Shown here one piece after another: positions 11,059 through 27,012 of a DNA stretch of 64,000 nucleotides (positions are counted from its first letter, which is position 1; every line of letters begins with the position of its first letter). The position numbers and the translations under genes are program-made. The notes under the pieces were generated by a model. The model did no database searches and had not been told where the DNA came from. It saw only the letters and a list, made by a program, of their open reading frames with translations. The DNA is from Candidatus Omnitrophota bacterium (GTDB taxonomy: Bacteria > Omnitrophota > Gorgyraeia > Gygaellales > Profunditerraquicolaceae). The stretch is taken from the NCBI GenBank assembly GCA_003598025.1, contig QZKH01000003.1, positions 503,221 through 567,220 of the forward strand, given 5' to 3'.

Positions 11059-11808
11059 TCACCGGTTCTTTTTCAATTCTGCTATAATACTATTGAATGG
11101 GAAACTTTCACCGGGACACTCAGTAGCCTTTCCCTCTATATCCTTATGCCTCCTTATGTTCTGCATGGATATGCCGTACTGTTCCCGTAAAACACTCACC
11201 AACTTAATCAACGCATCATGTTGCGATCTGCTAGCTTTTTCTTCATTAAAGTTACCTACAAGGCATATCTGAATATCAGCGGGACGATTTACCGCTTCCT
11301 GTTTTTTCCAGCGCCAGCCAACTTCGATTTCCCCATCTCCGGAGAGCGTGCCATTACCGATGACGAAATGATAAAAAAGACCGCCCATCCTGCGGCTACG
11401 GTGATTACGGTCAAAGGTAACAGCATTACCTTCATGAGTAGCACTATGATGTAATGTAATGTAATGCCAATCAGATGAGCTGGATTTTAGGCCCACCAAT
11501 TTCTTTATGGCTTCCCGGGGGATAGACTTATATGGTTCTATAGGCACCGGCAAGCGGACTCCCGGTATAAATATCCTTTGGCCAATGTCGATCTGCGTCG
11601 GATCTATGATTTTATTTAATCTCATGACCTGGTTAATATCAACATTATAACTTTTTGATATTCTATAAAGCGTCTGGCCTCTCTCAACGATATGATAAAT
11701 ACCGTAAGTTTGCCGCATGGACGGCTGAGTGGAAATGGTCACGCATCCGGAAGCTAGTATCGTTAGAAAGATAGAGCCTATTATTAACTTAAGGTCTGAA
11801 ATTTTCAT
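11059..11808 (-). CDS. LysM domain + N-acetylmuramoyl-L-alanine amidase (amidase_2/PGRP-like) lipoprotein
   Basis: Lipobox (ASGC); LysM (YHIVERGQTLYRISKSYNVDINQVMRLN); amidase_2-type motifs (HHSAT, HFVIGNG, CPG) in the C-terminal half. Confidence 0.75.
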   Translation of the reverse strand: MKISDLKLIIGSIFLTILASGCVTISTQPSMRQTYGIYHIVERGQTLYRISKSYNVDINQVMRLNKIIDPTQIDIGQRIFIPGVRLPVPIEPYKSIPREAIKKLVGLKSSSSDWHYITLHHSATHEGNAVTFDRNHRSRRMGGLFYHFVIGNGTLSGDGEIEVGWRWKKQEAVNRPADIQICLVGNFNEEKASRSQHDALIKLVSVLREQYGISMQNIRRHKDIEGKATECPGESFPFNSIIAELKKNR

Positions 11809-12538: not shown

Positions 12539-12864
12539 TCATGTGCAAGATGGCGGCCCGACCATCAAAAACCTCCAGAAAATTATTCTCTGGACCCTGA
12601 ATATAATTATTGTTATGTAATCATCGCCTTATTGGTTCATATTATAACTTATTTTCTAAAATAAGCAACTTAAAAGGTAACGGTTTTATTTTTCCTGCCT
12701 TGGCTGCCTTCCCGTTTTAGGAAACATAGCCGTCCGCTTTATCCCAAATTGGATATTCAAAATGATTCTATAAAACATCATGAGATGACAAGGGACGCTT
12801 CATTGTGCACTGCTCCAAATTTTTAAAAGCCTATCCTCTAAGAATATACCCCTTAATTTTATCT

Positions 12865-14919: not shown

Positions 14920-16143
14920 CTACCCCATGGCGCATGTGCCGCCGCCAAGTTTTGTCTTATACAATTTTTTATTATAAGGCAATTTCATTAGCAGCATACC
15001 CATAAGGCAGTTATCAGTCAATCCGGAAAAAACAAGTCCGCAGCTGACAAATACTGCAATAAAAATAAACGCCCAATGCACAAGCCATGATAAGAGTATG
15101 CCTGCCAAAACCAGACTGCCAGCAATAAGCCTGACCTGGCGCTCTAATGATATCCCGCCTTCGCCTTTAATAACAGAAAGCCCTTCTTTCTGCCAGCGCA
15201 ACATGCCTCCTTGCATTACCTTTACGCCGTGAATACCTGATTGTATCAACATATCAGCAGCCATAGGGGAACGGTTGCCCGTGCGGCATAGAACAATAAA
15301 ACTTTGCTTAGATTGGCTTAGCTCATTGATTTTAGCAGTAAGCATGTCTATGGGGATATTGATTGAATCCTTAATGTGCACCTGGCTGAATTCTAAAGCC
15401 GAGCGCACATCCAGCAATTTGACCTGCGGATCTTTTCCCGAAAGAGTTAAAGCATCTTTTGGAGAGATCATCTCCAATGCAGCAGCCTCTCCTCTTTGGT
15501 TTAAACGCACAATATTATCAATATTAAAAGGTTTAGGGATGACTTTTGCCCGCATATTCCTGGCAAATACCTCTTTATCTGTTTCTTTTAAGAAGGGATT
15601 TTCTTCCTTTTGTTTAGCTAAAGTGGATGAACGTTTTTCATGGTAGTCATGGCCGGGAAAAATGACAGTTTCTCCCGGAAGGTTTTTGAGGTTTTGTAAT
15701 GTATCAAACATGGATTCAGGAGAACCGTTCTGGAAATCCGTGCGGCCGACACTGCCTATCAAAAGCACATCACCGGTAAATAACCTGTTTTCACCGTATA
15801 AACTTATAGCGTCATCCGTATGCCCGGGGGTATATATTACTTTAAGAGTGCTTGAACCTACGGAAACCTGGTCCCCATTTTTAAGGCGCTTGTCTGCCAC
15901 TTCGGATATTGCTTTTTCATGCATCAATACCTGCGCGCCGGATTTCTTCTTAAAAACCGCGGCTAAGGAAAAATGGTCGGCATGCGTATGTGTGTCTATA
16001 ATAAATTTGAGTTTGAGCTTATTTTTCCTTAAATACTGGCCATACTCATCCAACAAGCTTATGTGAGGGTCAATTATTAATGCCTCTTCTTTAGAGCTTA
16101 TAACATATGAATAGCAGCTTCCGGCAATAAATTGTTTAAACAT
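14920..16143 (-). CDS. MBL-fold metallo-hydrolase (persulfide-dioxygenase-like) fused to rhodanese domain and C-terminal membrane segment
   Basis: HTHADH metal-binding motif; rhodanese active-site loop CRTGNRS; C-terminal two-TM region (DUF2892-like). Start set at the internal Met MFKQF, which has an AAGGAG RBS 9 nt upstream; the track ORF extends to 16257. Confidence 0.8.
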   Translation of the reverse strand: MFKQFIAGSCYSYVISSKEEALIIDPHISLLDEYGQYLRKNKLKLKFIIDTHTHADHFSLAAVFKKKSGAQVLMHEKAISEVADKRLKNGDQVSVGSSTLKVIYTPGHTDDAISLYGENRLFTGDVLLIGSVGRTDFQNGSPESMFDTLQNLKNLPGETVIFPGHDYHEKRSSTLAKQKEENPFLKETDKEVFARNMRAKVIPKPFNIDNIVRLNQRGEAAALEMISPKDALTLSGKDPQVKLLDVRSALEFSQVHIKDSINIPIDMLTAKINELSQSKQSFIVLCRTGNRSPMAADMLIQSGIHGVKVMQGGMLRWQKEGLSVIKGEGGISLERQVRLIAGSLVLAGILLSWLVHWAFIFIAVFVSCGLVFSGLTDNCLMGMLLMKLPYNKKLYKTKLGGGTCAMG

Positions 16144-16326
16144 ACTATTTCTCCTTGATAAAAATGTGACCGCCCCCTTTATTCGACACAGAAGGTGTCG
16201 CACTTGGCTTTCCAATAGGCCAATGTGCATTTTATGCCGTAGTAAGCAAGCCTTCAATCATCTAATAAGCCCCTACGGGGCGGGATGCCCCGACTCTTGC
16301 GGGCAGTGCTTCAAAACTAAACCTTT

Positions 16327-16395
16327 GGCGGGGCGCGGCCCCCACCCCGCGCCCCGCCTAGCGCTATCTTTTCAAAAAACTGGCGAAAATTTTAG
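16327..16395. repeat. Left copy of a 69-bp inverted repeat containing a 12-bp GC hairpin (IR-L)
   Basis: ggcggggcgcgg-cccccacc-ccgcgccccgcc hairpin plus the AT-rich arm tagcgctatcttttcaaaaaactggcgaaaattttag. Its reverse complement occurs at 23159-23227 with one indel. It abuts the stop codon of the OLD-like gene and probably also acts as its terminator. Confidence 0.8.
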
Positions 16396-18362
16396 GGATC
16401 GGCTAAACTTACAATTCTGCTTATAATATCAGTTAAGGTTTTGCTCCCTGCTTTTTGGCTTTTTGCGCACTCCATTAATTGATACAAAAAATACGGTTGT
16501 TTTTCGCCGATTTTTAGAGATTCTACTTCGGCTTTGCATATTTTATAAATTTCTTCGGACAACTCTTTTTTTAATTGTGCTGGCAAGTTTTCTTCAAAAC
16601 ATGCAAAAAGTTTTTCTACTCTAGTAGTAGGAAAATCTTCTTCTGTGACACCACCCAATTTTAAAAGAGCTCTATTATATTTGGTATTGCAATCTTTACT
16701 ACTGCTTTCGCATTTTTTATCTCCATCAAATAAAAAATATACTGGAATATCGAGTTCACGAAATATAAGGACACACCTATCAATATTCGTTTTGCCTCCA
16801 ATAGGTATTACGGTAATCCCTTTCCCTTCTAGGTCACCTGGATTTTTCAAGGTTCCAAATAAAACTGCTTTATCGGCTTCGCCTTCGACTATTACAACTG
16901 CATCTGCAAAAAAACCTTCATTAACATAAGGGGTCAAAAGTGAGATTAACCGCGCTTTTAATGATGCGGCGGTAAAACCTTCTTTCTGTTTTCCAAATAT
17001 TTCTTCCAACTCTTTGGTTATTTTATCTAAATTCATCTTTTTGACTTTTGTTTCTGGAATTGCCCCTCCTGCAATATTCTTTCTGGCCCTTCTTATTTTT
17101 TCTACCCTATCTAAACCAATAAAATGAGGAGAGTGTGTTGAATAAATAATCTGCATCTCATAATCTCGCTCAGGAGAAGGTTGCGCTAGCTCCAACAATA
17201 CTCTGGATATATGCCTTTGTCTAACTGGATGTTGATATAATTCTGGCTCTTCTATGGCGAGTATAAAATTAGGCCTTATTTCAACTATTTCTCCCTTTCG
17301 CTCTCCTTCTTCGTCTTTGGCTTCTTCTTCGGCTTGTTCTTTTTGCGAATCATCAACATGCCGAGCTATACTTAAATGTTGCAGCAACGTCATTATAAAG
17401 GCTCTTTGCAAACCATGCCCCTTTTTTGAAATATCTCCCTCAAAATTATCCTCAATCAATTTTACATATGCTTGCGGAAGCGGTATTTCTAAGTCTTCTT
17501 TTTCTTGCCAGTTTAATACTACGCCAGCTGATTGAACAAACTTTCTTAAAGTATCATTCAGTTCTTTCTGTAATTTTGGTAGTTCTGGTAATTTCTCAGG
17601 ATTAGTTAATTCTTTATACTTTTTTATGGTCTCTTCCTTAAATGCTAATAGCTCGGGTTTTCGCTCAATTTCTTTCTTAACGACTAACTGTAAGAGCTCA
17701 GTTATTATATTCCCTTTGGTCTCGGTTGCATCTAAATTTGCATCTCTTACAGCTGGTATAAAAATGAACCTAGTAAATCTTTCAAGCTTTCCAACACCTA
17801 CATTCCGAAAACCAAAAAATTGTCCATCATCTTTTATGCGCCTTAGCTTATCCAAATGCTCTTTTTCCCAAGCTGCCAAATTCGCCTCAATCCCATCTGC
17901 ACTTGATACCGTTGGCAAAGTATTGAATTCAGGCGTACTTCTTAACTCATTATATTTGGTCCTTTTGTCTGATTTCTGAATAGCTGTTCTTATTTCTTGA
18001 AAGTCAGGATACTGTAGTTTTGATCCGTAATATCTTTCTTGTGAAGTAACTCCATTAAACCCAATCTCTTTTTCGATCGTCAAAGTTCCTCTATCAATAT
18101 ATGGCGCAAACTCCTCAAGCTCATATTCTGTTAATTTATAAAACTTAATTATAATTCTTATTGGTTTGCTTGTGTCTTTATTGTAAAAATCTTCCTCATT
18201 AACTGTTAACGACTTCACCGTGTTATAAAATAGGTTGAGGGCTTGCAAAAATGTTGATTTTCCCGAGCCATTCGGACCTATCAGAATAGTTAAATCCTCA
18301 AAAGTAAGTGTTTCCTCCCTTATAGATCTGTAATTTAATACTGAGATTTCTTCAATAATCAT
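16392..18362 (-). CDS. OLD-family (overcoming lysogenization defect-like) ABC-type ATPase + Toprim nuclease-domain protein
   Basis: N-terminal Walker A GPNGSGKST; ABC signature-like GHGLQR; Walker B/D-loop ILAIEEPELYQHP; H-loop YSTHSP. C-terminal Toprim motifs: VIVEGEADK (ExxD) and YFLFDGDKK (DxD). 656 aa. Confidence 0.8.
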   Translation of the reverse strand: MIIEEISVLNYRSIREETLTFEDLTILIGPNGSGKSTFLQALNLFYNTVKSLTVNEEDFYNKDTSKPIRIIIKFYKLTEYELEEFAPYIDRGTLTIEKEIGFNGVTSQERYYGSKLQYPDFQEIRTAIQKSDKRTKYNELRSTPEFNTLPTVSSADGIEANLAAWEKEHLDKLRRIKDDGQFFGFRNVGVGKLERFTRFIFIPAVRDANLDATETKGNIITELLQLVVKKEIERKPELLAFKEETIKKYKELTNPEKLPELPKLQKELNDTLRKFVQSAGVVLNWQEKEDLEIPLPQAYVKLIEDNFEGDISKKGHGLQRAFIMTLLQHLSIARHVDDSQKEQAEEEAKDEEGERKGEIVEIRPNFILAIEEPELYQHPVRQRHISRVLLELAQPSPERDYEMQIIYSTHSPHFIGLDRVEKIRRARKNIAGGAIPETKVKKMNLDKITKELEEIFGKQKEGFTAASLKARLISLLTPYVNEGFFADAVVIVEGEADKAVLFGTLKNPGDLEGKGITVIPIGGKTNIDRCVLIFRELDIPVYFLFDGDKKCESSSKDCNTKYNRALLKLGGVTEEDFPTTRVEKLFACFEENLPAQLKKELSEEIYKICKAEVESLKIGEKQPYFLYQLMECAKSQKAGSKTLTDIISRIVSLADP

Positions 18363-18409
18363 TTAGTTCCTTTATCCATAAAATCCTTTAACTGCCAATT
18401 TCTTAGTTT

Positions 18410-19171
18410 TTAACAATAACCTTCTGTTTCTTTTATCGCTTTGCTATATAAACAATAATCACAGTCTTTGCTATGTCCAGGCACCTTAGGGTTCATCAGG
18501 CATTTATGCATTTCAACTATTACAGGATCAATCCAAGAGCTATTTCCTTCATAAGAAATAATTTTAATGTTAAACTCAAGCTTTGCATCAAAACTTTCCT
18601 TGTTGGTATTTCCATTACAATATACAAAGTAACCGGTAGAAGAAACATTAAAATCGTTTTTCCTGAATAACCACTGATATATTTCCATTTGTCTTTTATA
18701 AGATACCTGCCAATCTGCATCTAAGTTTACCTCTTCCTCTTTGGACGTGCTCTTATAATCTACGATAAAAAGTTGGCCTTCTGATCCGGCCCAGACATCA
18801 TCCACGGCTCCTGAAAGCAAAAGATTAGTTTGCGGATGTAAATATTCTATTCCGCCACGAAGAGCATCTCGCCAGAGATTTAACTTTTCATGTTGAAAAG
18901 GAACAGCCTTTATTCCATAGGTTTGCATAAGGGGGTGGGGCGTTTGTTTACTTCTATGCAAATCGAATTCTTTCTTAAGTAATTTATCCACCGCAGAATT
19001 CAAAGCAAAGGGAAATCCTGGAGGCTGCCCCACTCCTAGTCTTCTATCAAGATAAAAACAGCGTGGACAGTTAATAAATAGCTCGATTTTAGAACGGCTT
19101 ATCTTGAATGGTAATTTATTAAGCGGATCAAATAGATTCCGCGTTCTTCTTCCAGAATAGTATTTTGACAT
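18410..19171 (-). CDS. Cas4/RecB-like PD-(D/E)xK nuclease with 4-Cys (Fe-S) cluster
   Basis: Motifs GAVDDVWA and LFIVDYKST (motif II/III: D...hhDYK), QMEIY (RecB-family QxxxY), one N-terminal Cys (CPRC) and C-terminal CDYC: the Cas4/AddB-type Fe-S arrangement. 253 aa; 48-nt gap to the OLD-like gene. Confidence 0.75.
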   Translation of the reverse strand: MSKYYSGRRTRNLFDPLNKLPFKISRSKIELFINCPRCFYLDRRLGVGQPPGFPFALNSAVDKLLKKEFDLHRSKQTPHPLMQTYGIKAVPFQHEKLNLWRDALRGGIEYLHPQTNLLLSGAVDDVWAGSEGQLFIVDYKSTSKEEEVNLDADWQVSYKRQMEIYQWLFRKNDFNVSSTGYFVYCNGNTNKESFDAKLEFNIKIISYEGNSSWIDPVIVEMHKCLMNPKVPGHSKDCDYCLYSKAIKETEGYC

Positions 19172-19209
19172 TTTAAGCCTTTGAATAACCTATGAAACAA
19201 ACTCGGCTG

Positions 19210-19422
19210 CTAACAAATCCTATTTTGTCTATAAACCTTATAAATATTTCTGCTGGCATAACTGCCCTTTGAATTAGCGGAACACAGCGCATCGTAGATA
19301 TGTTGGGGTACGTTAAAATACTCATAAAGTGAACCGTCTTTAAACTCTATTTGCAAGATTGCACTATCAGAATCATATCCTATAGAAGCTAAAGTTGAGG
19401 AATTAACAGAAATCATATCCAC
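19210..19422 (-). CDS. KTSC-domain small protein
   Basis: 70 aa; STLASIGYD...ILQIEFKDGSLYEYFNVPQHIYDAL matches the KTSC (lysyl-tRNA synthetase C-terminal-like) fold pattern. 38-nt gap to the downstream nuclease gene. Confidence 0.55.
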   Translation of the reverse strand: MDMISVNSSTLASIGYDSDSAILQIEFKDGSLYEYFNVPQHIYDALCSANSKGSYASRNIYKVYRQNRIC

Positions 19423-19517
19423 CTTTCTTTCTCCTTTTTGATATGTTTTTCCTCTATGAGAACTGCTGCCATGAAACTATTTCTACTTTTTAAGAATTAG
19501 AAATATCTATGTATTAA

Positions 19518-20339
19518 TTATTCCTTTTGAAAATCATTTACTATTGTAAAAATTAAAGCCACGGTTGCAGAAGCAGTAGCCTTAGAAATAGTGTATTTTT
19601 TACTCTTTTCTGCAGCTAAATGTACCGAGTTTCTAAATCGTCTAATTGCTGAAGCCAAATTACTGATCTCTTCTTTTAAAAAACCTTTTTTTTGACATAT
19701 TTCAATTAGTTCTTCAAATCTTTTATTCTTCACATTTTCATTTTTATTATCTAGGAATAATCTTAGCAATTCCTCTATCACTCCACCAGCCAAAATTACA
19801 GCTGGTTTATTAAAATCATTTCTGGCTAAAAAATAGGCTTGTTCAACGTCTCTAAAAATAATTTCTCTTCTAAATTGGCTTTTAACAAAGTTAATATTTT
19901 TCCCAAATACACGCTTGCTTATTCCAAAGTCTTTTTTTATTCCATCCCAATAATTCTTATTTTCGGCTTGTTTCTTTTTTCTTGAAGATCGGGCATGCAG
20001 CCATGAAGAGCTCTCGGGTTGTGGGCCATCTTCACAATACCAACCTTCACTATAATCTAGATATTCTGAAGGACAATCAAGCCGATCAGTTATTGCTACT
20101 CGAAAGGAAATAGCATCTAAGTCTTTGTAACGCGCTGGGCTAAAATCAGAAACCCTACCTTCCCAACAGCCTTCTATCTTTCGAGTTTCACGATTTCTTT
20201 TTATAAATACCGTATTGGTATTGGCTACTAATTTCCCCTCATTCATAGGGTGACGGAACATTGATTTAGTAAAAAACGCTCTGTTATCTGGTAGCTGATC
20301 CCAATGACCCCGCCAATTTGTTACCATTATGTATTTCAT
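19518..20339 (-). CDS. Hypothetical protein with possible C-terminal HEPN-like domain
   Basis: 273 aa. The C-terminal helical region contains AIRRFRNSVHLAAE, compatible with the HEPN Rx4-6H motif. The N-terminal domain is unrecognised. First gene of the minus-strand operon. Confidence 0.35.
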   Translation of the reverse strand: MKYIMVTNWRGHWDQLPDNRAFFTKSMFRHPMNEGKLVANTNTVFIKRNRETRKIEGCWEGRVSDFSPARYKDLDAISFRVAITDRLDCPSEYLDYSEGWYCEDGPQPESSSWLHARSSRKKKQAENKNYWDGIKKDFGISKRVFGKNINFVKSQFRREIIFRDVEQAYFLARNDFNKPAVILAGGVIEELLRLFLDNKNENVKNKRFEELIEICQKKGFLKEEISNLASAIRRFRNSVHLAAEKSKKYTISKATASATVALIFTIVNDFQKE

Positions 20340-20559
20340 ATTGGCCCCTTCTTAAAATTAATCTTAATATAAATTAAGGCAACCTCCTATTCTAGAGAAT
20401 CGCCTTATGTTTTAGTATTCAAACCCCCATTCCCCACCTCTTTGTGCTGGGAATTATTATACTACCATTCTAAGCAATATTAAGCTTTTTTCTTAGAAAT
20501 TTATGTTAGATTTTGCCATTTATTGCGTCTATTACATTAAAGGTAGATAAACAATTTTC

Positions 20560-20593
20560 TTGACCTTTTTTACATTTCGTAGTACAATCGAAA
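20560..20593 (+). promoter_or_regulatory. Sigma70-like promoter (TTGACC-17-TACAAT) overlapped by an imperfect palindrome, upstream of the lexA-methyltransferase fusion
   Basis: TTGACC at 20560-20565, 17-nt spacer, TACAAT at 20583-20588. Palindrome TTTCGTAGTACAATCGAAA at 20575-20593 (TTCG...CGAA arms) overlaps the -10 and could be a LexA-type operator. ATG at 20618. Confidence 0.4.
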
Positions 20594-20617
20594 AAGAATC
20601 GAAAGTAGAGACTAGAT

Positions 20618-22150
20618 ATGCTTACAAAACGCAAAAAACAAATATTAGACTTCCTGAAAGACTATATAAATAAACATCGCTATTCGCCCTCCCTAGAAGA
20701 AATAAAAAAACATTTCCGATTATCTTCTGTAGCCACGATTCATTACCATATACGCCAATTACAAGAGATGGGGTATTTAGACAAAATGAATAACCATCCT
20801 AGAACAATAGATGTCTCAATGGAACAAAAGTTAATACGAATTCCGATTCTTGGTACTATTGCGGCCGGGCAACCCATTGAGGTAATTGAAAACAAAGAAA
20901 GCATCGCCATCCCCCAAAGCAAAATTAATTCTAACGATGAATATTTTGCATTACGAGTAATTGGAAATAGCATGATAGATGAAAATATAAATGAAGGGGA
21001 TATTATCTTAGTAAGAAGACAATCAGTAGCTGAAAATGGACAAAAGATAGTTGCGCTTATTGATAATTATAAAGCGACTCTAAAAAAATTCTATAAAGAA
21101 AGAGGACATATTAGACTTCAGCCTGCAAATAAATTCCTTGAGCCAATTATTATAGATAAGAAGAGCGAATTTGTTATACAAGGCGCAGTAGTTGATGTTA
21201 TAAAGAATACTGCCTCCGAACCCCTAACTATTACACCTCCAATTAAAGATAAGCCCAAAAAACATGATAAATTGCCCTTAAACAAAATTATTTGTGGGGA
21301 TGCCCTTGAAGAGATTAGAAAGATTCCGGATGAATCCTGTCATGTTATTATTGCTGATCCTCCTTATAATATTGGTAAAGATTTCGGCAATAACCTAGAT
21401 AAAAGAGATTTGGGAGAATATATTGCATGGTGTAAAACTTGGATTAATGAATGCGCCAGAATAATGAAACCCCGCGCTACAATGTTTATCTATGGATTCA
21501 GCGAAATCTTAGCTTATTTATCTGTTGAGATTCCCCTAAACCGGAGATGGCTAATTTGGCATTATACTAATAAAAACGTGGCCTCTCTCCAATTCTGGCA
21601 AAGGAGCCATGAAGCAATTATCTCTTGCTGGAAAGATGATCCTGTTTTCAATAGGGATGATGTACGAGAACCTTATACTGAAGGATTCTTAAATGGAGCG
21701 GCTGGCAAAGTTAGGGCAGGAACCGCAGGACGATTTAGCCGAAATGGAAAAGAAACTATTTATAAAGCGCATGAAGCGGGAGCGTTGCCTAGAGATGTTA
21801 TTAAAATCCCTGCATTAGCCGGAGGCGCTGGCATGACCGAACGATGGTTTTTATGCAAAACCTGTGATAACGTTTTTAAGCCAGATGCCCTTAAGAAACA
21901 TATTAACCATGATATAATAAAACACCCAACACAAAAACCTTTGGAGCTCTCGGGAAAGCTAATTAAGTCATCGATACCTAAGAATGGCGGCATAGTATTG
22001 GCTCCTTTTGCCGGGGTAGGCTCGGAATGCGTAGCAGCTAAACAACTTGGACTAGCTTACATCGGAATTGAGCTTAATCCTGAGTATATTAGGATTGCAA
22101 ATAAAAGGTTGGATAGTATTGAAGTGCAGGATACCCTCAAATTATTCTAA
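20618..22150 (+). CDS. Full-length LexA repressor (wHTH + S24 peptidase) fused to a beta-class N6-adenine/N4-cytosine DNA methyltransferase
   Basis: Residues 1-200 align to LexA throughout: the HTH region, the AAGQP Ala-Gly cleavage site (E. coli VAAGEP), Ser in RVIGNSM and Lys in YKATLKKF. Residues 210-510 carry the N6_N4_Mtase signatures DPPY (motif IV), then HPTQKP and LAPFAGVGSE (motif I) in the beta-class order. Confidence 0.8.
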   Translation: MLTKRKKQILDFLKDYINKHRYSPSLEEIKKHFRLSSVATIHYHIRQLQEMGYLDKMNNHPRTIDVSMEQKLIRIPILGTIAAGQPIEVIENKESIAIPQSKINSNDEYFALRVIGNSMIDENINEGDIILVRRQSVAENGQKIVALIDNYKATLKKFYKERGHIRLQPANKFLEPIIIDKKSEFVIQGAVVDVIKNTASEPLTITPPIKDKPKKHDKLPLNKIICGDALEEIRKIPDESCHVIIADPPYNIGKDFGNNLDKRDLGEYIAWCKTWINECARIMKPRATMFIYGFSEILAYLSVEIPLNRRWLIWHYTNKNVASLQFWQRSHEAIISCWKDDPVFNRDDVREPYTEGFLNGAAGKVRAGTAGRFSRNGKETIYKAHEAGALPRDVIKIPALAGGAGMTERWFLCKTCDNVFKPDALKKHINHDIIKHPTQKPLELSGKLIKSSIPKNGGIVLAPFAGVGSECVAAKQLGLAYIGIELNPEYIRIANKRLDSIEVQDTLKLF

Positions 22151-22848
22151 TCGTAAAGCGCCTTCTCTTCTTCAAAAATTGTTGGCGTAAAAACTGTAAA
22201 ACCATTTTTTAGAATCTTGATCTTCCCTGTATCTAACCAATCAGCCTTAAACTCACTATAAGCCTTTTTAAACCCACCCTTCTTTTTATTAGGATCTAGA
22301 AGCATGTCAAAATTTGGAACTTTGTAGACGATTTTAATAAATTTTCCATAAAGTTGCTTTTTGGGCTTCTTTTCCGCCCTTACCTCTCTGCTAAAAGTCT
22401 CTTTTTTAACCTGGTAATTCAACTTTTTCCCTTTATAAGTAACTCTAAAGTCAGCTCCTTGATGATCTAATTCTGAAGACATCTCTACAGATTTTTCTCC
22501 AAAAACCGCTTCGGCTACGTAACCAGCATGAATTTGAGTAATAATACTCGCCCAAGTACGGTAAATCCTCGCAGGCAGACCTTTATAAAAACAGGTTTTG
22601 CACATTTGGGTCTTATTACGAAACAATTCTAGATTCTTACGGTATAGTTTCCTATATTCTTCATAGAACTGCTCGTAAGAGATAACCTTTCTTTTATCCC
22701 AATATATCTTATAAAGCAAATCTAATGCCTGGATTTCTCTAGGTAAATCCATTTCAACTATTTTAATGGGCATGAATTTCTTACGATAGTTGCCCAAATC
22801 AACAATCTCTAAAAACTTTTCAAATTGCTCGTTGTCCATTTTAGCCAT
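22147..22848 (-). CDS. Putative Type II restriction endonuclease (partner of the methyltransferase)
   Basis: No family signature. Inferred from position (directly downstream of a C-protein gene, convergent with and overlapping the MTase 3' end by 4 nt) and a possible PD-(D/E)xK-like ELDHQGADF...YQVKK segment. Confidence 0.4.
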   Translation of the reverse strand: MAKMDNEQFEKFLEIVDLGNYRKKFMPIKIVEMDLPREIQALDLLYKIYWDKRKVISYEQFYEEYRKLYRKNLELFRNKTQMCKTCFYKGLPARIYRTWASIITQIHAGYVAEAVFGEKSVEMSSELDHQGADFRVTYKGKKLNYQVKKETFSREVRAEKKPKKQLYGKFIKIVYKVPNFDMLLDPNKKKGGFKKAYSEFKADWLDTGKIKILKNGFTVFTPTIFEEEKALYD

Positions 22849-22857
22849 ATTTTCTCA

Positions 22858-23067
22858 CTATAATAATTCTTTTACAGAAACATTAAGCGCTTTTGCAAGC
22901 TTAGCGATATTCTTAAGCGCAACGTTTCTTTTCCCGCATTCAATCTGTCCAATATATGTCCGGTGTAAATCGGCTAATTCCGCAAGTTTCTCTTGGGAGA
23001 GATTCTTCTTGAGGCGATATTTACGCACCTTAGCACCAAATTGTTCTAGAATTAATGCCATATTCAT
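22858..23067 (-). CDS. R-M controller (C) protein, XRE-family HTH
   Basis: 69 aa; LSQEKLAELADLHRTYIGQIECGKRNVALKNIAKLAKALNV is a canonical XRE/Cro-C1 HTH of C-protein size. Located immediately upstream of the putative REase gene on the same strand. Confidence 0.65.
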   Translation of the reverse strand: MNMALILEQFGAKVRKYRLKKNLSQEKLAELADLHRTYIGQIECGKRNVALKNIAKLAKALNVSVKELL

Positions 23068-23158
23068 CTTTCCTTTATTGACAATATTATATAATTATGT
23101 TATATTTAAGTCTACAGAATCCGAGTAACATTATTATAAACAAAAAATGTTCCCTCCC

Positions 23159-23227
23159 CTAAAATTTTCGCCAGTTTTTTGAAAAGATAGCGCCAGGCGG
23201 GGCGCGGGGTGGGGGCCGCGCCCCGCC
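23159..23227. repeat. Right copy of the 69-bp inverted repeat (IR-R)
   Basis: Reverse complement of 16327-16395 with a single indel (cagg vs ctagg). Weaker similarity extends about 60 bp further outward on both copies. Confidence 0.8.
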
Positions 23228-23716
23228 CAAGCATTTTCTGAAGCACTGAACGCAAGAGGCGGGGCAAAGCGCCGTCCGTATAGTTTTAGCTTGTATCAGG
23301 CGCTGCGGCCGAGCTTCTTCCTAAAAAAATTTTGTTTTTAAGGGCTAAATTGAGCTAAAGCGAGGACGCACGCCGCGACCCTGGATTTTTTTATTGTTGT
23401 AGCGACGAGCCACGCCGAACACGCACTGCATTACCACGAAGCGAGCGGCCCAGCGAGCGCCATTGCCCGCTCAATGTGGGAGCGCCCCCCCAGGGCGCGG
23501 TGCATTTAAGCTGTTTCCTTAGAGGCCGGCTTTACCCCGGTATTAGAAAACAAAAACGGCAAGAGGCGGGGCAGAGTTTAGATATAGCAGCTGAGGTTCT
23601 TTCCGGGAAAATTTTGTTTGCAGGGCGCGGGGATAAGGAGATGTTTCAGGGCTTTACCCCGGGATGCACCTTGCCCAAAAGGATGGGCAAGTGCCCGGCT
23701 TTCTGCCGGGAGTTTC
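23160..23716. repeat. GC-rich repetitive non-coding spacer
   Basis: About 560 bp of more than 60 % GC in an AT-rich genome. Contains recurring motifs gggcgcgg, ctttaccccgg and caagaggcggggca, each present 2-3 times, and a perfect hairpin ggacccca-tttctaaa-tggggtcc at about 23752-23777 just inside the recombinase 3' end. The ORFs here (e.g. 23476..23781) look spurious. Confidence 0.5.
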
Positions 23717-25594
23717 TCAGGGACGAAAATGCTTTCGATCTATCGGATACAAGGACCCCATTTCTAAATGGGGTCCCATAAGTTCCCCTGTGCGAACACC
23801 TAGATTGCTATAATACTTTTTACCTGAACCGGCTAACGGAACCCCGTCGCACGAGGAAGTTTCTCTTTTCTTATAAGCTTTTGTTCCAAACTTGCCACTA
23901 ATCTCTTCTAAAGCTTTATTATTATAACACTCATCGGCTATTTTTTGTAACGTTTTATTCCATATTTCAGCATTTTGACCTCTACTAAAAGGACGACCGA
24001 ATAACCCGATCTTGAGCTTGCCAATCCCTTTTTTCTTGTCAGCGATTTCGCAGATAACCGAATTAATTATTCTTGGTAAAATTGCCTGAATACGCTCCCT
24101 ATTATTTTTATTCATCATATAAAAATCTTCAAATAACTGTAATGTCATAATGTAGTCATGAGCTGTCCCGGCCTGTACCTTTTCTGCTTGAATTTCTGAT
24201 TTCAGTCTGTTTTCTTCTAAAACTAGCTCAGACTCATCTTGATTTAAAGTCCCTAGTTTCTCCTTAACCATATCGATTCCTGCCAGCCCTTTATCTGTGA
24301 GTATATCCACTAAATTTGCAATTTTTGTACGAATATCTTTTAGGCTTGCCTGAACTCTATCCAAATCTTCTTCCAAAATTCCTATTGTTGATGCAGTTGC
24401 CTGGTTTGCTTTTTTTACGATTTCGGCGATATTCTCCGGATCTAAATGTAAATTCCGCAGCACCTCGATGATTGCATCGTCTACAGCATCTGCAGCCAAA
24501 AGATTAACTTCTCCACAATCAATACCATTAGTCTTAAATGCTTTCATGCACATATAATAGGGATAATATTTACCGCCTTTACCGGTAGCCGGCCTTGTAA
24601 TCATGGTCGACCCGCAATTACTACATTTAAGCAGGCTTTTGGTAAGGTAAACGTAATTACGATTTGAGCCATTGGGACCGTGATTGGTTGTTCTGTTTCT
24701 TTTTAAGACCGCTTGGATTGTTTTATGAACATCCTCACTCCTTATGGGTTCCCAGTTCCCGGTATAAATCTGACCATTGTGCTCCTGCTTTGCAATATAG
24801 CGAATATTCTGAAGAATACGCGATACTTGAGGTTTTGAATATGTTTTCCCATGTTTAGATTTATAACCTTTTTGGTGCAAAATATCAACAACCTTACCTG
24901 CACTTTTCACTCTCAGGTATAATTGATCAATAAATTCAACATGCTTTCTATAAACAGGATCGGGCACATAGGTAGTCTTACCATTAATATCTTTATTTGT
25001 TCGATAACCTAATGGTGGCGGACCTATTGGCCGGCCCTGATTAAGATGTCTTATAACAGTTTCTAAACTATATTGCGATATCCGTTCTGCTTGCCATTGG
25101 GCAAGATTAGCGTGATTACGCATAATCATCTGCCCGTCAGGCGTTGATGTATCTATATCAAGATCTAGACAGACAAGCGCAACCTCATTCTCGTTAAATT
25201 CAGCTGAAATATCTATATAGTCTCTTGTGTTTCTTGCTATACGATCCAGTTTTGTTACTACAACAACATCAATAAGCCTTAATTTAGCAAGTTCAAGGGC
25301 TTTAGCTAATCCTCTTCTGCCTTCACGCTTTGTTGCAGTGCGCCCTTTTCTCTGTCCGTCCGGGCCTTCGTTTTCTACGAATATATCGATAAGCTCCCAT
25401 TTTTGAGGCGCATGCAGACTTGATTTAGACTTCACCCAATTCTTAAGGACTTCTTTCTGATGATCTAATGATTCGCCTATCTTCTGCGCCTGCTTGTCTG
25501 TTGAAACGCGGGCAATGCCAAAAACACGGACAACCTTTGCATCCTTAAAGCTATAAACAGTTGTAACTCTTCTCCAAGATATCTTTTCAGCCAT
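23717..25594 (-). CDS. Large serine recombinase (resolvase/invertase N-terminal domain + recombinase domain + zinc ribbon + coiled coil)
   Basis: Catalytic-Ser region GIARVSTDKQ near the N-terminus, recombinase domain, zinc ribbon CSNCGS...YYPYYMC, long C-terminal coiled coil; 625 aa. Confidence 0.85.
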   Translation of the reverse strand: MAEKISWRRVTTVYSFKDAKVVRVFGIARVSTDKQAQKIGESLDHQKEVLKNWVKSKSSLHAPQKWELIDIFVENEGPDGQRKGRTATKREGRRGLAKALELAKLRLIDVVVVTKLDRIARNTRDYIDISAEFNENEVALVCLDLDIDTSTPDGQMIMRNHANLAQWQAERISQYSLETVIRHLNQGRPIGPPPLGYRTNKDINGKTTYVPDPVYRKHVEFIDQLYLRVKSAGKVVDILHQKGYKSKHGKTYSKPQVSRILQNIRYIAKQEHNGQIYTGNWEPIRSEDVHKTIQAVLKRNRTTNHGPNGSNRNYVYLTKSLLKCSNCGSTMITRPATGKGGKYYPYYMCMKAFKTNGIDCGEVNLLAADAVDDAIIEVLRNLHLDPENIAEIVKKANQATASTIGILEEDLDRVQASLKDIRTKIANLVDILTDKGLAGIDMVKEKLGTLNQDESELVLEENRLKSEIQAEKVQAGTAHDYIMTLQLFEDFYMMNKNNRERIQAILPRIINSVICEIADKKKGIGKLKIGLFGRPFSRGQNAEIWNKTLQKIADECYNNKALEEISGKFGTKAYKKRETSSCDGVPLAGSGKKYYSNLGVRTGELMGPHLEMGSLYPIDRKHFRP

Positions 25595-25636
25595 AACCTC
25601 CCCTACTTTCGTTTGGGTAACATTATAGCATTTATT

Positions 25637-25891
25637 CTATTCATTGCAATCTTTTTTATTTCCATAAATATCTCTGCTGGTTTCCCGACATGACTCTGCC
25701 CAAAGCAATCCAAAGATTTCATTAAAATCTCTTATCCTGTCTTCGTCTGATAATTGCGTATAGGGATTACTTGGATTAACATACAGTTCAGGAGCAGAGC
25801 TGGCGTCACAGATTTCAATCTTAAAAGACCGAATCACTTTTCCAGCATGTTTTTTTTGTTTTATCTTATCAGACTTATCCACAGAATTCAC
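25637..25891 (-). CDS. Hypothetical small protein
   Basis: 84-aa ORF between the recombinase and the replication-organizer-like gene; no motif. Confidence 0.3.
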   Translation of the reverse strand: MNSVDKSDKIKQKKHAGKVIRSFKIEICDASSAPELYVNPSNPYTQLSDEDRIRDFNEIFGLLWAESCRETSRDIYGNKKDCNE

Positions 25892-25943
25892 AGCCTCATT
25901 TCTTTACTACTATTTCTTTAATATTTTCTTTAAAAGCTTTACA

Positions 25944-26006
25944 GGGGTTAGTTGACCCCCAAAAATAGGGGCTAATTCACCCCTTATGTGGGGGTAATTT
26001 GGCCCC
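25944..26006. repeat. Three iteron-like GGGG-N8/9-CCCC hairpin units
   Basis: ggggttagttgacccc (25944-25959), ggggctaattcacccc (25968-25983) and gggggtaatttggcccc (25990-26006), spaced about 22-24 bp apart and overlapping the 3' end of the replication-organizer-like gene. Confidence 0.45.
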
Positions 26007-26393
26007 TTCGATATTACGAGTTTTCCACAGCTGCCAGGTTGTGTGATTCGGATTTAAAGCAAGTCTGTTTTTACGGCCATCCTTGCTTTTGATAATGACC
26101 TTGGACTGAATAAGCAGATTGATCGTTCTTCTGACATTGCGCTTGTTGAGATTTGTCTCTTTTGCGATATAGCCGTAACTAAGAAGCTTGTTTTCTTTAT
26201 GCCAGCCGCTGGTCATCCGGATTACAAAAATAATAACCCGGATCTCTGTGCCATTGAAAGGCGACCTGTAAATAGCGCGCAAAACATTATTAGAGATCTT
26301 TGTGTAGCCCCCAATATTCTGAAATAAAGTTTCTGTCATAGTAAAAGGCAACAAAAAAGGGGCTGGCATTCCTGAGAGTTTCCTCAGAAACAC
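25977..26393 (-). CDS. Winged-helix DNA-binding protein resembling the phage replisome-organizer / replication-initiator N-terminal domain
   Basis: The pattern ISNNVLRAIYRSPFNGTEIRVIIFVIRMTSGW...LSYGYIAKETNLNKRNVRRTINLLIQSKVI is typical of Phage_rep_org_N-type wHTH domains. The true start is probably the internal MTETLFQN. Confidence 0.45.
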   Translation of the reverse strand: MFLRKLSGMPAPFLLPFTMTETLFQNIGGYTKISNNVLRAIYRSPFNGTEIRVIIFVIRMTSGWHKENKLLSYGYIAKETNLNKRNVRRTINLLIQSKVIIKSKDGRKNRLALNPNHTTWQLWKTRNIEGAKLPPHKG

Positions 26394-26545
26394 CAGCCCC
26401 TTGGTTCTTCAATAGGACTGTCTTACATTACTACCGAATTGTCAGATCCTGCTTCTTAAAAAATTATACACTATACTTCGATATTGTCAAGATTTTTTAG
26501 GAACAAGTCTAACAAGTTTAAATGCAGAAATCTTTTTATAATAAA

Positions 26546-26725
26546 TTACTCGGCGTTAAATGAATCTTTCCTCCGGATTCTCCGTATCTCTTCCTTAAAG
26601 GGTGCAACATCTACGGCTTTCTCTTCTTTGATTAATACCGGGACTCCATCTTCAAAGTTTATTTTGATAGAGCCAAAAAAGCGCCCCTTAACCAATGAAT
26701 CCAAATAATTATTTAATTTCTCCAT
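26546..26725 (-). CDS. Small protein (59 aa), DUF2292/YezD-like pattern
   Basis: Reverse-strand ORF MEKLNNYLDSLVKGRFFGSIKINFEDGVPVLIKEEKAVDVAPFKEEIRRIRRKDSFNAE; below the ORF-track size cut-off. It overlaps the plus-strand ORF 26484..26708, which I consider spurious. Confidence 0.3.
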   Translation of the reverse strand: MEKLNNYLDSLVKGRFFGSIKINFEDGVPVLIKEEKAVDVAPFKEEIRRIRRKDSFNAE

Positions 26726-26882
26726 TTATTTAGCCAAATCCTTCATAACCTCTTCTTCTGCTTTATATTAACCAATGTGCGGTTTTGCTACATAACGTTG
26801 TAATTCCGCACATTTTATGGTATACTTTAAGTAGAAATAAGTCAGAAAAAGGTTTAAGTCGATAATAGCAAACCATTCGAAA

Positions 26883-27012
26883 GAATGGGGCGCAAAGCTA
26901 TAGAGCCTAACTTCCGGGGGATACCCGGGATAAGGCAGTCAGTTGCCGAAGTTAAACTTTTTTTCTTTTGTGCCCCATTCTTCTGAAAAGAGAAGCAGAA
27001 TGGGGCGTTTTT
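26883..27012 (+). promoter_or_regulatory. Leader with terminator/anti-terminator alternative pairing upstream of a response-regulator gene
   Basis: gccccattcttc (26972-26983) pairs with gaagcagaatggggc (26991-27006), followed by TTTTT (27008-27012): an intrinsic terminator about 25 nt before the RBS. An upstream copy of gaatggggcg (26883-26892) could pair with the same gccccattc arm instead. A palindrome atgtgcgg-N23-ccgcacat and a TATACT -10-like hexamer lie at 26780-26830. Confidence 0.4.

Follow-up and report, generated by a model that had tools for sequence, protein, structure and literature searches.

In SCCmec elements, large serine recombinases (LSRs) of the CcrAB or CcrC type act at the 3' end of rlmH, and in the Hin/Gin/Cin and shufflon systems invertases of ~190 aa act at 26-bp sites with the aid of a Fis-dependent enhancer. 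The systems that come closest to the locus described here are islands that grow as elements integrate time and again at an RNA gene's 3' end, such as the tycheposons of Prochlorococcus (10.1101/2020.12.28.424599), and the sedentary chromosomal integrons that carry defence cassettes (10.1101/2024.07.02.601686). The stretch of DNA analysed, hereafter called the window, comprises 64,000 nucleotides of a Candidatus Omnitrophota bacterium (contig QZKH01000003.1, positions 503,221 to 567,220, forward strand) and contains a defence island bracketed by two inverted repeats, IR-L and IR-R, each with a GC-rich hairpin followed by an AT-rich arm. The explanation that we favour, with modest confidence, is that these repeats are the terminal modules of two convergent copies of a lineage-specific structured element and represent junctions of an Omnitrophota region of defence and toxin-antitoxin cassettes. 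Literature searches returned no earlier description of such a hairpin-cassette system.

The repeats span positions 16323-16397 and 23157-23231 and are 97% complementary over 75 nt; a second, outward block of 38 nt (16279-16316 and 23236-23273) is 82% complementary, and the near-perfect inverted repeat noticed in a preliminary description of the sequence is thus real. The single indel that this description placed between the two copies turned out to be one substitution, which is the sole mismatch within the 69-bp core (CCTAGCGC versus CCTGGCGC, i.e. TAGCGC versus TGGCGC). The core of both copies is a 32-nt hairpin, GGCGGGGCGCGG-CCCCCACC-CCGCGCCCCGCC, with a perfect 12-bp stem and an 8-nt loop, and 3' of it lies the AT-rich arm TAGCGCTATCTTTTCAAAAAACTGGCGAAAATTTTAGGG; the hairpin and a 37-nt block of the arm each recur exactly in both copies, shuffled sequence giving zero matches. 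IR-L (16279-16397, plus strand) is composed of an outer extension (ext) block at 16279-16326, the hairpin at 16327-16358 and the arm at 16359-16397, and IR-R (23157-23273, minus strand) of its own ext block, the hairpin at 23196-23227 and the arm at 23157-23195. Pattern searches of the entire window returned no copy besides these two, and an nhmmer profile built from 49 family copies likewise found only IR-L and IR-R (E 1e-21 and 8e-23), the next match having an E value of 0.95. The two repeats enclose, exactly as first described, an OLD/Cas4-like operon and a module of LexA-methyltransferase, restriction enzyme and controller (C) genes, and this gene list was matched by Pfam and PADLOC searches.

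Relatives of the hairpin unit were sought by an exact stem-pattern scan of one genome per species and by a metagenome scan with the arm pattern, followed up by BLAST and nhmmer; the L-numbers used below denote comparison loci. The stem scan returned nine different Candidatus Omnitrophota metagenome-assembled genomes (MAGs) in GTDB, one stretch each, all of them alike in the loop, the arm (ending ...TTTTTAGGGGGAGG) and the outer ext block, and the arm scan added 39 further stretches. In all, the unit is present in more than 50 Omnitrophota loci. A single unit cluster is present on each of two long contigs of 647 and 357 kb. With one locus per genome and one cluster per contig, the unit does not behave like a generic repetitive extragenic palindromic (REP) sequence strewn over the genome, a possibility that the preliminary description had singled out for checking. 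Contigs often stop at the unit, as would be expected if its neighbours vary within the population.

How closely are the two window repeats related to each other? Over the 122-nt unit they are 84.7% identical; IR-L is nearest to L068, L034 and L072 (89-90%) and IR-R to L053 (92%), each ranks only 10th-15th among the relatives of the other, and each has 9-14 closer relatives in other genomes. The ext blocks are of different alleles as well, that of IR-L being of the L034/L010/L068 type and that of IR-R of the L053/L035/L036 type. Given these different outer alleles and the low mutual rank, the two repeats have separate origins, and the near-identity of their inner 75 nt therefore reflects family-wide conservation rather than recent duplication or local homogenisation; both also share the uncommon AAAATTTT variant of the arm. 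The earlier argument that the repeats are too alike for two independent terminators holds in this form, both being members of a family of conserved sites that lie where cassettes join. Stem pairing has been kept in the family by three independent double changes (GCGTG/CACGC and GTGG/CCAC). Some copies depart from the common plan: L014 (139-170), L046 (1602-1633) and L070 (3610-3641) have their asymmetric 8-nt loop turned round (GGTGGGGG) with respect to the arm, and L041 and L056 have a different hairpin, GGGGCGGGCGTG-GTGCGG-CACGCCCGCCCC, at the same element position, the presence of which led us to reject a view of these two as truncated, '5'-only' copies.

The usual layout of the family is a direct array in which a full copy is followed, at a spacing of 0.7-2.7 kb, by half-copies in which only the inner stem or loop remains along with the 3' stem and the arm (as in L053, where four copies are present, L073, L010, L017 and L045). 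Neighbouring arm-bearing copies form 17 same-orientation pairs versus only 2 pairs of opposite orientation, namely the window and L057, where facing sites 5.05 kb apart surround restriction-modification genes in the geometry seen in the window; the inverted layout is hence a minority, so that the repeats do not qualify as terminal inverted repeats delimiting a cassette of the transposon kind. For about 41 of 50 copies, the end of a convergent open reading frame (ORF) lies no more than 150 nt from the arm (a 42nd, a spurious ORF over the C gene of the window, was excluded), and the OLD gene, whose stop codon (16392-16394) abuts the arm end of IR-L, conforms to this usual geometry. Between the copies lie cassettes of 1-3 genes, mainly of the defence or toxin-antitoxin kind, including AAA_15/OLD-like ATPases, HEPN/MNT pairs, Fic, a DUF6036 nucleotidyltransferase, UvrD helicases, restriction-modification genes of types I and II and DUF4145. 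Identical cassettes recur in different arrays, for instance a DUF6036 pair in L005 and L017 and an MNT/HEPN pair in L035, L031 and L079.

Where do the half-copies of these arrays begin? In 19 out of 19, similarity to the full site starts within ~±10 nt of the loop, and many half-copies share a left-hand motif, GGGACGTTTCTATTTTTCAAAAATTAGAAG. Breakpoints that cluster at the hairpin centre argue for site-specific recombination there, and the arrangement of the family as a whole suggests both a recombination junction at this centre and a turnover of cassettes. The earlier notion of the ends of a mobile cassette or of paired recombination sites is partly borne out at the level of the family, unlike the idea of a single element delimited by this particular pair. 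In L070, a 103-nt inverted repeat with 100% identity ends exactly at the loop, and in view of this repeat and of the three flipped loops, recombination between inverted hairpins seems to occur within the family. Each of the 41 full hairpins carries an ext block on one side and an arm on the other, for which reason a model whereby the cassette is a two-arm circle that enters a target with two ext sides was dropped.

We propose that cassettes are gained and lost by site-specific recombination whose crossover would fall in the 8-nt loop of the 32-bp palindrome or close to it, and each cassette would bring its own right half, i.e. the loop, the 3' stem and the arm. Insertion would then regenerate a full site on one side and leave a half-hairpin plus arm on the other, such that arrays would accumulate. 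In the window, two sites would face each other around two cassettes, the OLD operon with its 3' end at IR-L and the C-controlled restriction-modification module, and inversion of this 6.8-kb block by recombination between the inverted sites, or its excision, is plausible.

What, then, is the unit part of? IR-R forms the end of a long conserved non-coding element (23157-23716, minus strand), in which modules D, C and B, variable hairpins, ext, the hairpin and the arm follow one another; it measures ~450-560 nt in the family and ~560 nt in the window, and is 75-87% identical to copies in many Omnitrophota loci. Its variable-length hairpins carry many compensatory changes, and in an alignment of 19 sequences with 41 predicted pairs (96.9% paired) such changes were found at 17 of the 41 pairs, as opposed to 7.8±1.4 in shuffles (0 of 500 reached the observed number) and 2-6 in slid controls. 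This covariation favours a folded molecule and makes the element a candidate new structured RNA of a subset of Omnitrophota, a largely uncultured phylum with very small cells; in the exact stem scan it was present in a minority of the Omnitrophota genomes. No Rfam family matched it at either gathering or E-value thresholds, and neither BLAST against plasmids and phages nor scans of viral contigs gave a match to the unit or the element, so that the unit does not correspond to any known attP of a phage or plasmid. The hairpin is followed by CGCUAUCUUUU and is thereby predicted to be terminator-like on the element's strand (minus at IR-R); it probably serves also as terminator of the element transcript and of the convergent cassette genes. 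The element often lies near tRNA-His, LSR and defence genes.

IR-L, on the other hand, ends a short form of ~230 nt that resembles the short form of L005 and lies upstream of a gene for an MBL-fold/rhodanese protein. Its 5' part (16165-16278, plus strand), delineated by alignment with L005 and L079, is placed divergently upstream of this gene and contains two module D hairpins (~16176-16192 and ~16197-16228) and a linker. Compensatory changes are seen in the first of the two hairpins when the L005 short form and L079 are aligned (CGACAC/GTGTCG versus CCCGC/GCGGG versus CCTGC/GCAGG), and a stem at 16204-16223, in the module D region, was also detected in the terminator/promoter-type scan that flagged the IR-R hairpin. 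In L079, the MBL-rhodanese orthologue (~80% nucleotide identity) is likewise immediately preceded by a unit, identical in placement and orientation, and related modules precede the orthologue in L077 and L078. Comparison with related genomes, which the preliminary description had proposed, thus finds cassette content to differ at one and the same orthologous site, different cargo lying beside the MBL-rhodanese flank in the window, L079 and L077. Because the same site recurs in orthologous loci with differing cargo, IR-L is a resident site at a conserved chromosomal position. In L077, an arm copy (11237-11275) comes right after the MBL-rhodanese stop codon and long-element modules precede the gene, as if this housekeeping-type gene were placed inside a cassette array.

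Which enzyme might act on the hairpin? At the 5' edge of the long element, a type-2 LSR of ~480-500 aa is encoded in at least 9 loci, including L070, L047, L049, L072, L046, L061, L074 and L086, the last of which was chosen via the protein alone, without reference to the unit, and yet shows the gene at the element's edge. This family is very large (7222 matches at E<1e-40), and it has members without the long element (L087, L088). The gene is flanked by inverted repeats of 59-150 nt, and in each pair one arm coincides with the 3' coding end of the gene itself; identity between the arms is 100% in L070 (1-75/1499-1573), L074 (98-189/1678-1769), L049 (12644-12731/14180-14267), L087 (47-196/1559-1708) and L088/L089 (9774-9910/11304-11440 in L088), 98% in L072 (7919-7977/9467-9525) and 91% in L086 (9741-9875/11292-11426). 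It occurs in both orientations, adjoins tRNA-His or tRNA-Arg, and looks like a self-inverting or insertion sequence (IS)-like unit whose C-terminal tail would change upon inversion. A gene for tRNA-His is found at the arm-side far end of arrays in L034 (5177-5255) and L044 (1322-1400), but in L049 (12572-12649) and L086 (9670-9746) it lies at the long element's 5' edge; there is a resemblance between the hairpin loop plus the first part of the 3' stem (CCACCCC) and the tRNA-His 3' end (GCCACCCCA), the place at which type-2 LSR units abut. The hairpin sites may be recombined by the type-2 LSR, or this enzyme's gene may merely insert next to them. A more specific proposal, which we consider unlikely, is that the element is the platform of an undescribed, integron-like capture system of Omnitrophota with the terminal hairpin as its crossover site. 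Small cassettes of defence and toxin-antitoxin genes, all equipped with loop, 3' stem and arm, would then be put in, taken out or flipped by an LSR, possibly the self-inverting type-2 enzyme encoded next to tRNA-His and perhaps with the help of the conserved RNA.

Several points weigh against the hairpin as a recombination junction. Excised, empty or double-arm products were not seen among the loci compared, and the profile search of the window gave no third site in the interior, where the OLD operon and the restriction-modification module adjoin, just as neither an M1-type motif nor a hidden site was found there or at the right edge of the island. The restriction-modification module adjoins IR-R in an unusual orientation. 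Searches of limited sensitivity detected no recombinase in the cassettes and no tyrosine recombinase. LSRs usually need only ~50-bp sites that share 2 bp, and a shared identity block of 65 nt would be more in keeping with integration into RNA genes. The repeats of the type-2 LSR and its junctions at tRNA ends are unrelated to the hairpin, and its linkage to the element may consequently only mirror an insertion preference. Finally, all comparative data come from MAG and metagenome assemblies, in which artefacts around repeats are possible.

Could the unit be a mere conserved terminator or 3'-untranslated-region module of the REP type, which travels with genes or is duplicated, and whose inverted layout in the window simply reflects two convergent transcription units? 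The hairpin is indeed terminator-like, most units sit at gene 3' ends and no enzyme is linked to the unit. Half-copies that lack the 5' stem, however, cannot form the hairpin and yet retain the loop, the 3' stem and the 45-nt arm nearly unchanged; the copies are confined to one locus per genome instead of being dispersed; cross-species conservation of 90-100% exceeds what is expected of a terminator; and cassettes turn over next to fixed flanks. We therefore regard this account as improbable, although it survives better than the two that follow; were it correct, the window would hold an ordinary defence island beside a small integrative element.

Both remaining alternatives treat the 6.8-kb block as a unit, and one of them depends on the recombinase gene to its right. 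The preliminary description had this gene start ~500 bp beyond IR-R, but it is its 3' end (stop at 23717) that faces IR-R, ~440 nt past the outer block. The 625-aa protein, a type-1 LSR with Recombinase and Zn_ribbon domains in Pfam searches (ORF 23717-25594, minus strand), has 76 homologues in our searches. When five other type-1 LSR loci are aligned with it, DNA homology is lost at 23769-23771, within the 3' end of the gene and after ...GCGACCCC, which implies that the LSR is the terminal gene of a ~3-kb mini-element whose junction (GACCCC|A) lies in its own coding end. By homology to the other loci, this mini-element covers 23770-26800 (minus strand, right edge within 26728-26856) and also comprises an 84-aa ORF (25637-25891), a gene for a RepO-like protein (25977-26393) and a 56-aa ORF (26558-26727), all on the minus strand. 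Beyond the junction, the window sequence resembles the tail of L070, L047 and L073, and the junction alignment identifies 23717-23769 (minus strand) as target-side DNA that encodes the C-terminal tail of the LSR and in which the 3' end of a type-2 LSR gene survives in degenerate form. Elsewhere, the same module (57 aa, RepO, 80 aa, LSR) abuts the FUR operon in L081; in L080 the LSR is upstream of this operon as in L081, with five extra genes between; in L082-84 the LSR 3' end overlaps a thioredoxin gene; and in L073 the type-1 element is located inside the 3' end of a type-2 LSR. The target-encoded tail of the type-1 LSR accordingly differs by site, i.e. upstream of FUR, upstream of thioredoxin or in the type-2 LSR tail. 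Most likely, the neighbouring LSR is part of a small mobile element of its own, which came to lie at the long element's 5' edge, and it is probably not the enzyme for the hairpin sites. The long element as attP or platform of the window's own LSR was also considered and rejected, given that homology to the five type-1 loci ends at 23769-23771.

These findings bear on the proposal that the block is an invertible segment, which the adjacent LSR would flip between the two hairpin sites and so switch the defence genes in a phase-variable manner. In its favour are the inverted orientation and near-identity of the sites, the serine recombinase gene close by, the perfect repeats of L070 that end at the loop, the flipped loops of L014, L046 and L070, and the occurrence of LSR genes in both orientations. 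Nevertheless, this LSR ends a distinct mini-element with its own junction at ~23770 and resides elsewhere at FUR or thioredoxin targets with no hairpin unit nearby; LSRs generally pair attP with attB rather than identical sites; the two window repeats show no homogenisation; the family consists mostly of direct repeats; and expression would not obviously be changed by inversion, both cassettes having their own predicted promoters. Such a switch thus seems very improbable. The least probable account takes 16.3-23.3 kb to be one discrete defence element, transposable or mobilisable as a whole, with the repeats as its terminal inverted repeats. It can draw on the second inverted pair around restriction-modification genes in L057 and on the AAAATTTT variant common to both window copies, but it is contradicted by the lack of a transposase between the repeats in Pfam and PADLOC searches, by their different outer alleles, by the conserved position of IR-L in orthologous loci with other cargo, by the contiguity of IR-R with a 560-nt element that is found elsewhere without an inverted partner, and by the absence of arm-hairpin-arm or ext-hairpin-ext products among the 41 full hairpins.

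The cargo of the window, assigned by Pfam and PADLOC searches, consists of two cassettes. Cassette 1 (16392-20339, minus strand) encodes an OLD-family ATPase-nuclease with AAA_15 and TOPRIM domains (16392-18362), a Cas4-like PD-(D/E)XK nuclease (18410-19171), a KTSC protein (19210-19422) and a DUF4145-like protein (19518-20339), all on the minus strand. Cassette 2 (20618-23067, mixed strands) is a type II restriction-modification module with a LexA-S24-N6_N4 methyltransferase fusion (20618-22150, plus strand), a TaqI-like restriction enzyme (22147-22848, minus strand) and a C/HTH controller (22858-23067, minus strand). The C gene and its upstream region adjoin an arm in the same manner in L047 and L061, with 83-84% nucleotide and 88-91% amino acid identity. 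The methyltransferase is fused to a complete LexA-like module, i.e. a LexA DNA-binding domain plus S24 peptidase, which suggests DNA-damage-responsive self-cleavage or autoregulation of the methylase beside a separate C-protein controller. Two promoter-like sites in the control region of the C gene point apart (23078-23106, plus strand; 23086-23114, minus strand); the plus-strand site, TTGACA-17-TATATT with 11 of 12 matches, is directed into IR-R, and a transcript from this predicted promoter would be antisense to the long element.

GC content is 33-37% inside the island compared with ~41% in the flanks, which are chromosomal on either side. To the left lie the genes for the MBL-fold/rhodanese protein (likely start at 16143) and an aquaporin, with an nhaA-I RNA motif further out at 12548-12597 (minus strand); to the right, a c-di-GMP-I riboswitch (26857-26950, plus strand) is followed by a response regulator gene. 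ARAGORN detected no tRNA or transfer-messenger RNA (tmRNA) in the window.

What would follow if the hairpin were indeed a recombination junction? Omnitrophota would possess a compact hotspot for shuffling anti-phage and toxin-antitoxin genes, built on a structured non-coding element rather than on an integron integrase or a tRNA gene, which would amount to a new architecture of cassette exchange. The 32-bp palindrome and its arm would provide a sequence handle by which new defence genes could be found in metagenomes. There would also be an undescribed structured RNA of ~0.25-0.55 kb, and two LSR families with defined junctions would become potential tools for genome engineering.

How do these features compare with those of described systems? 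A transposon with terminal inverted repeats would call for a transposase, none of which is present between the repeats, and the window sequence shows no flanking target-site duplication. With REP elements, bacterial interspersed mosaic elements (BIMEs) and miniature inverted-repeat transposable elements (MITEs), the unit shares a GC-rich hairpin in an AT-rich genome, a location at gene ends and an occasional arrangement in inverted pairs, but it is not dispersed, with two copies in 64 kb and one locus per genome, and its flanks are long, conserved and asymmetric, being part of a larger structured element. The Hin/Gin/Cin switches and shufflons likewise have inverted sites that bracket a segment beside a serine recombinase gene; unlike theirs, the recombinase here is a 625-aa LSR of another element, and the site family is mostly direct. 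SCCmec and composite SCC elements resemble the locus in their serine-recombinase context, in tandem accumulation at one site and in having both direct and inverted boundary repeats. SCC units, however, measure 20-60 kb, carry ccr and have a repeat of ~15-20 bp, whereas the units considered here measure ~1-7 kb and share a ~65-nt block that ends in a 32-bp palindrome.

The likeness to sedentary integrons goes further. Arrays in which a conserved palindromic repeat of ~70-130 nt comes after every cassette of 1-2 genes, cargo rich in toxin-antitoxin and anti-phage genes, and a recombinase gene at the edge of a non-coding platform are common to both, and an array of short cassettes with a conserved imperfect palindrome after each, one of the marks of an integron, is found in L053, L073, L010 and L017. 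At the same time, the recombinases nearby are LSRs: no Phage_integrase was among the top Pfam families of 113 neighbouring ORFs, which might have indicated an IntI-type enzyme, and a tblastn search of the window and ~60 loci with an approximate XerD query, limited in sensitivity, gave no match. By eye, no RYYYAAC or GTTRRRY core was found at the unit ends in 49 copies, which end in ...TTTTTAGGGGGAGG and in many half-copies show GGGACGTTTCTATTTTTCAAAAATTAGAAG. Moreover, the cassette genes point towards the platform and hence could not be read from a platform promoter.

Islands at RNA genes, including those at tRNA and tmRNA genes, the tycheposons, and the accretion of cis-mobilizable elements (CIMEs) and ICEs (integrative and conjugative elements), display a full RNA-like gene together with same-orientation partial 3' copies in a variable island, as seen here. 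In both cases newer insertions push older ones along the array, some units carry only cargo and no integrase, and tRNA-His and LSR genes lie nearby. The differences are that the repeated gene is not a tRNA or tmRNA but an undescribed element of 230-560 nt, that the units are very small, with 1-3 genes and no assigned integrase, and that full sites occur in mid-array and, as in the window, facing each other. Taken together, the window system does not pass as an integron, an invertase switch, a REP element or a transposon by the tests that define them, and its closest analogues are the islands that accrete at RNA genes, such as the tycheposons, and the defence-bearing sedentary integrons.

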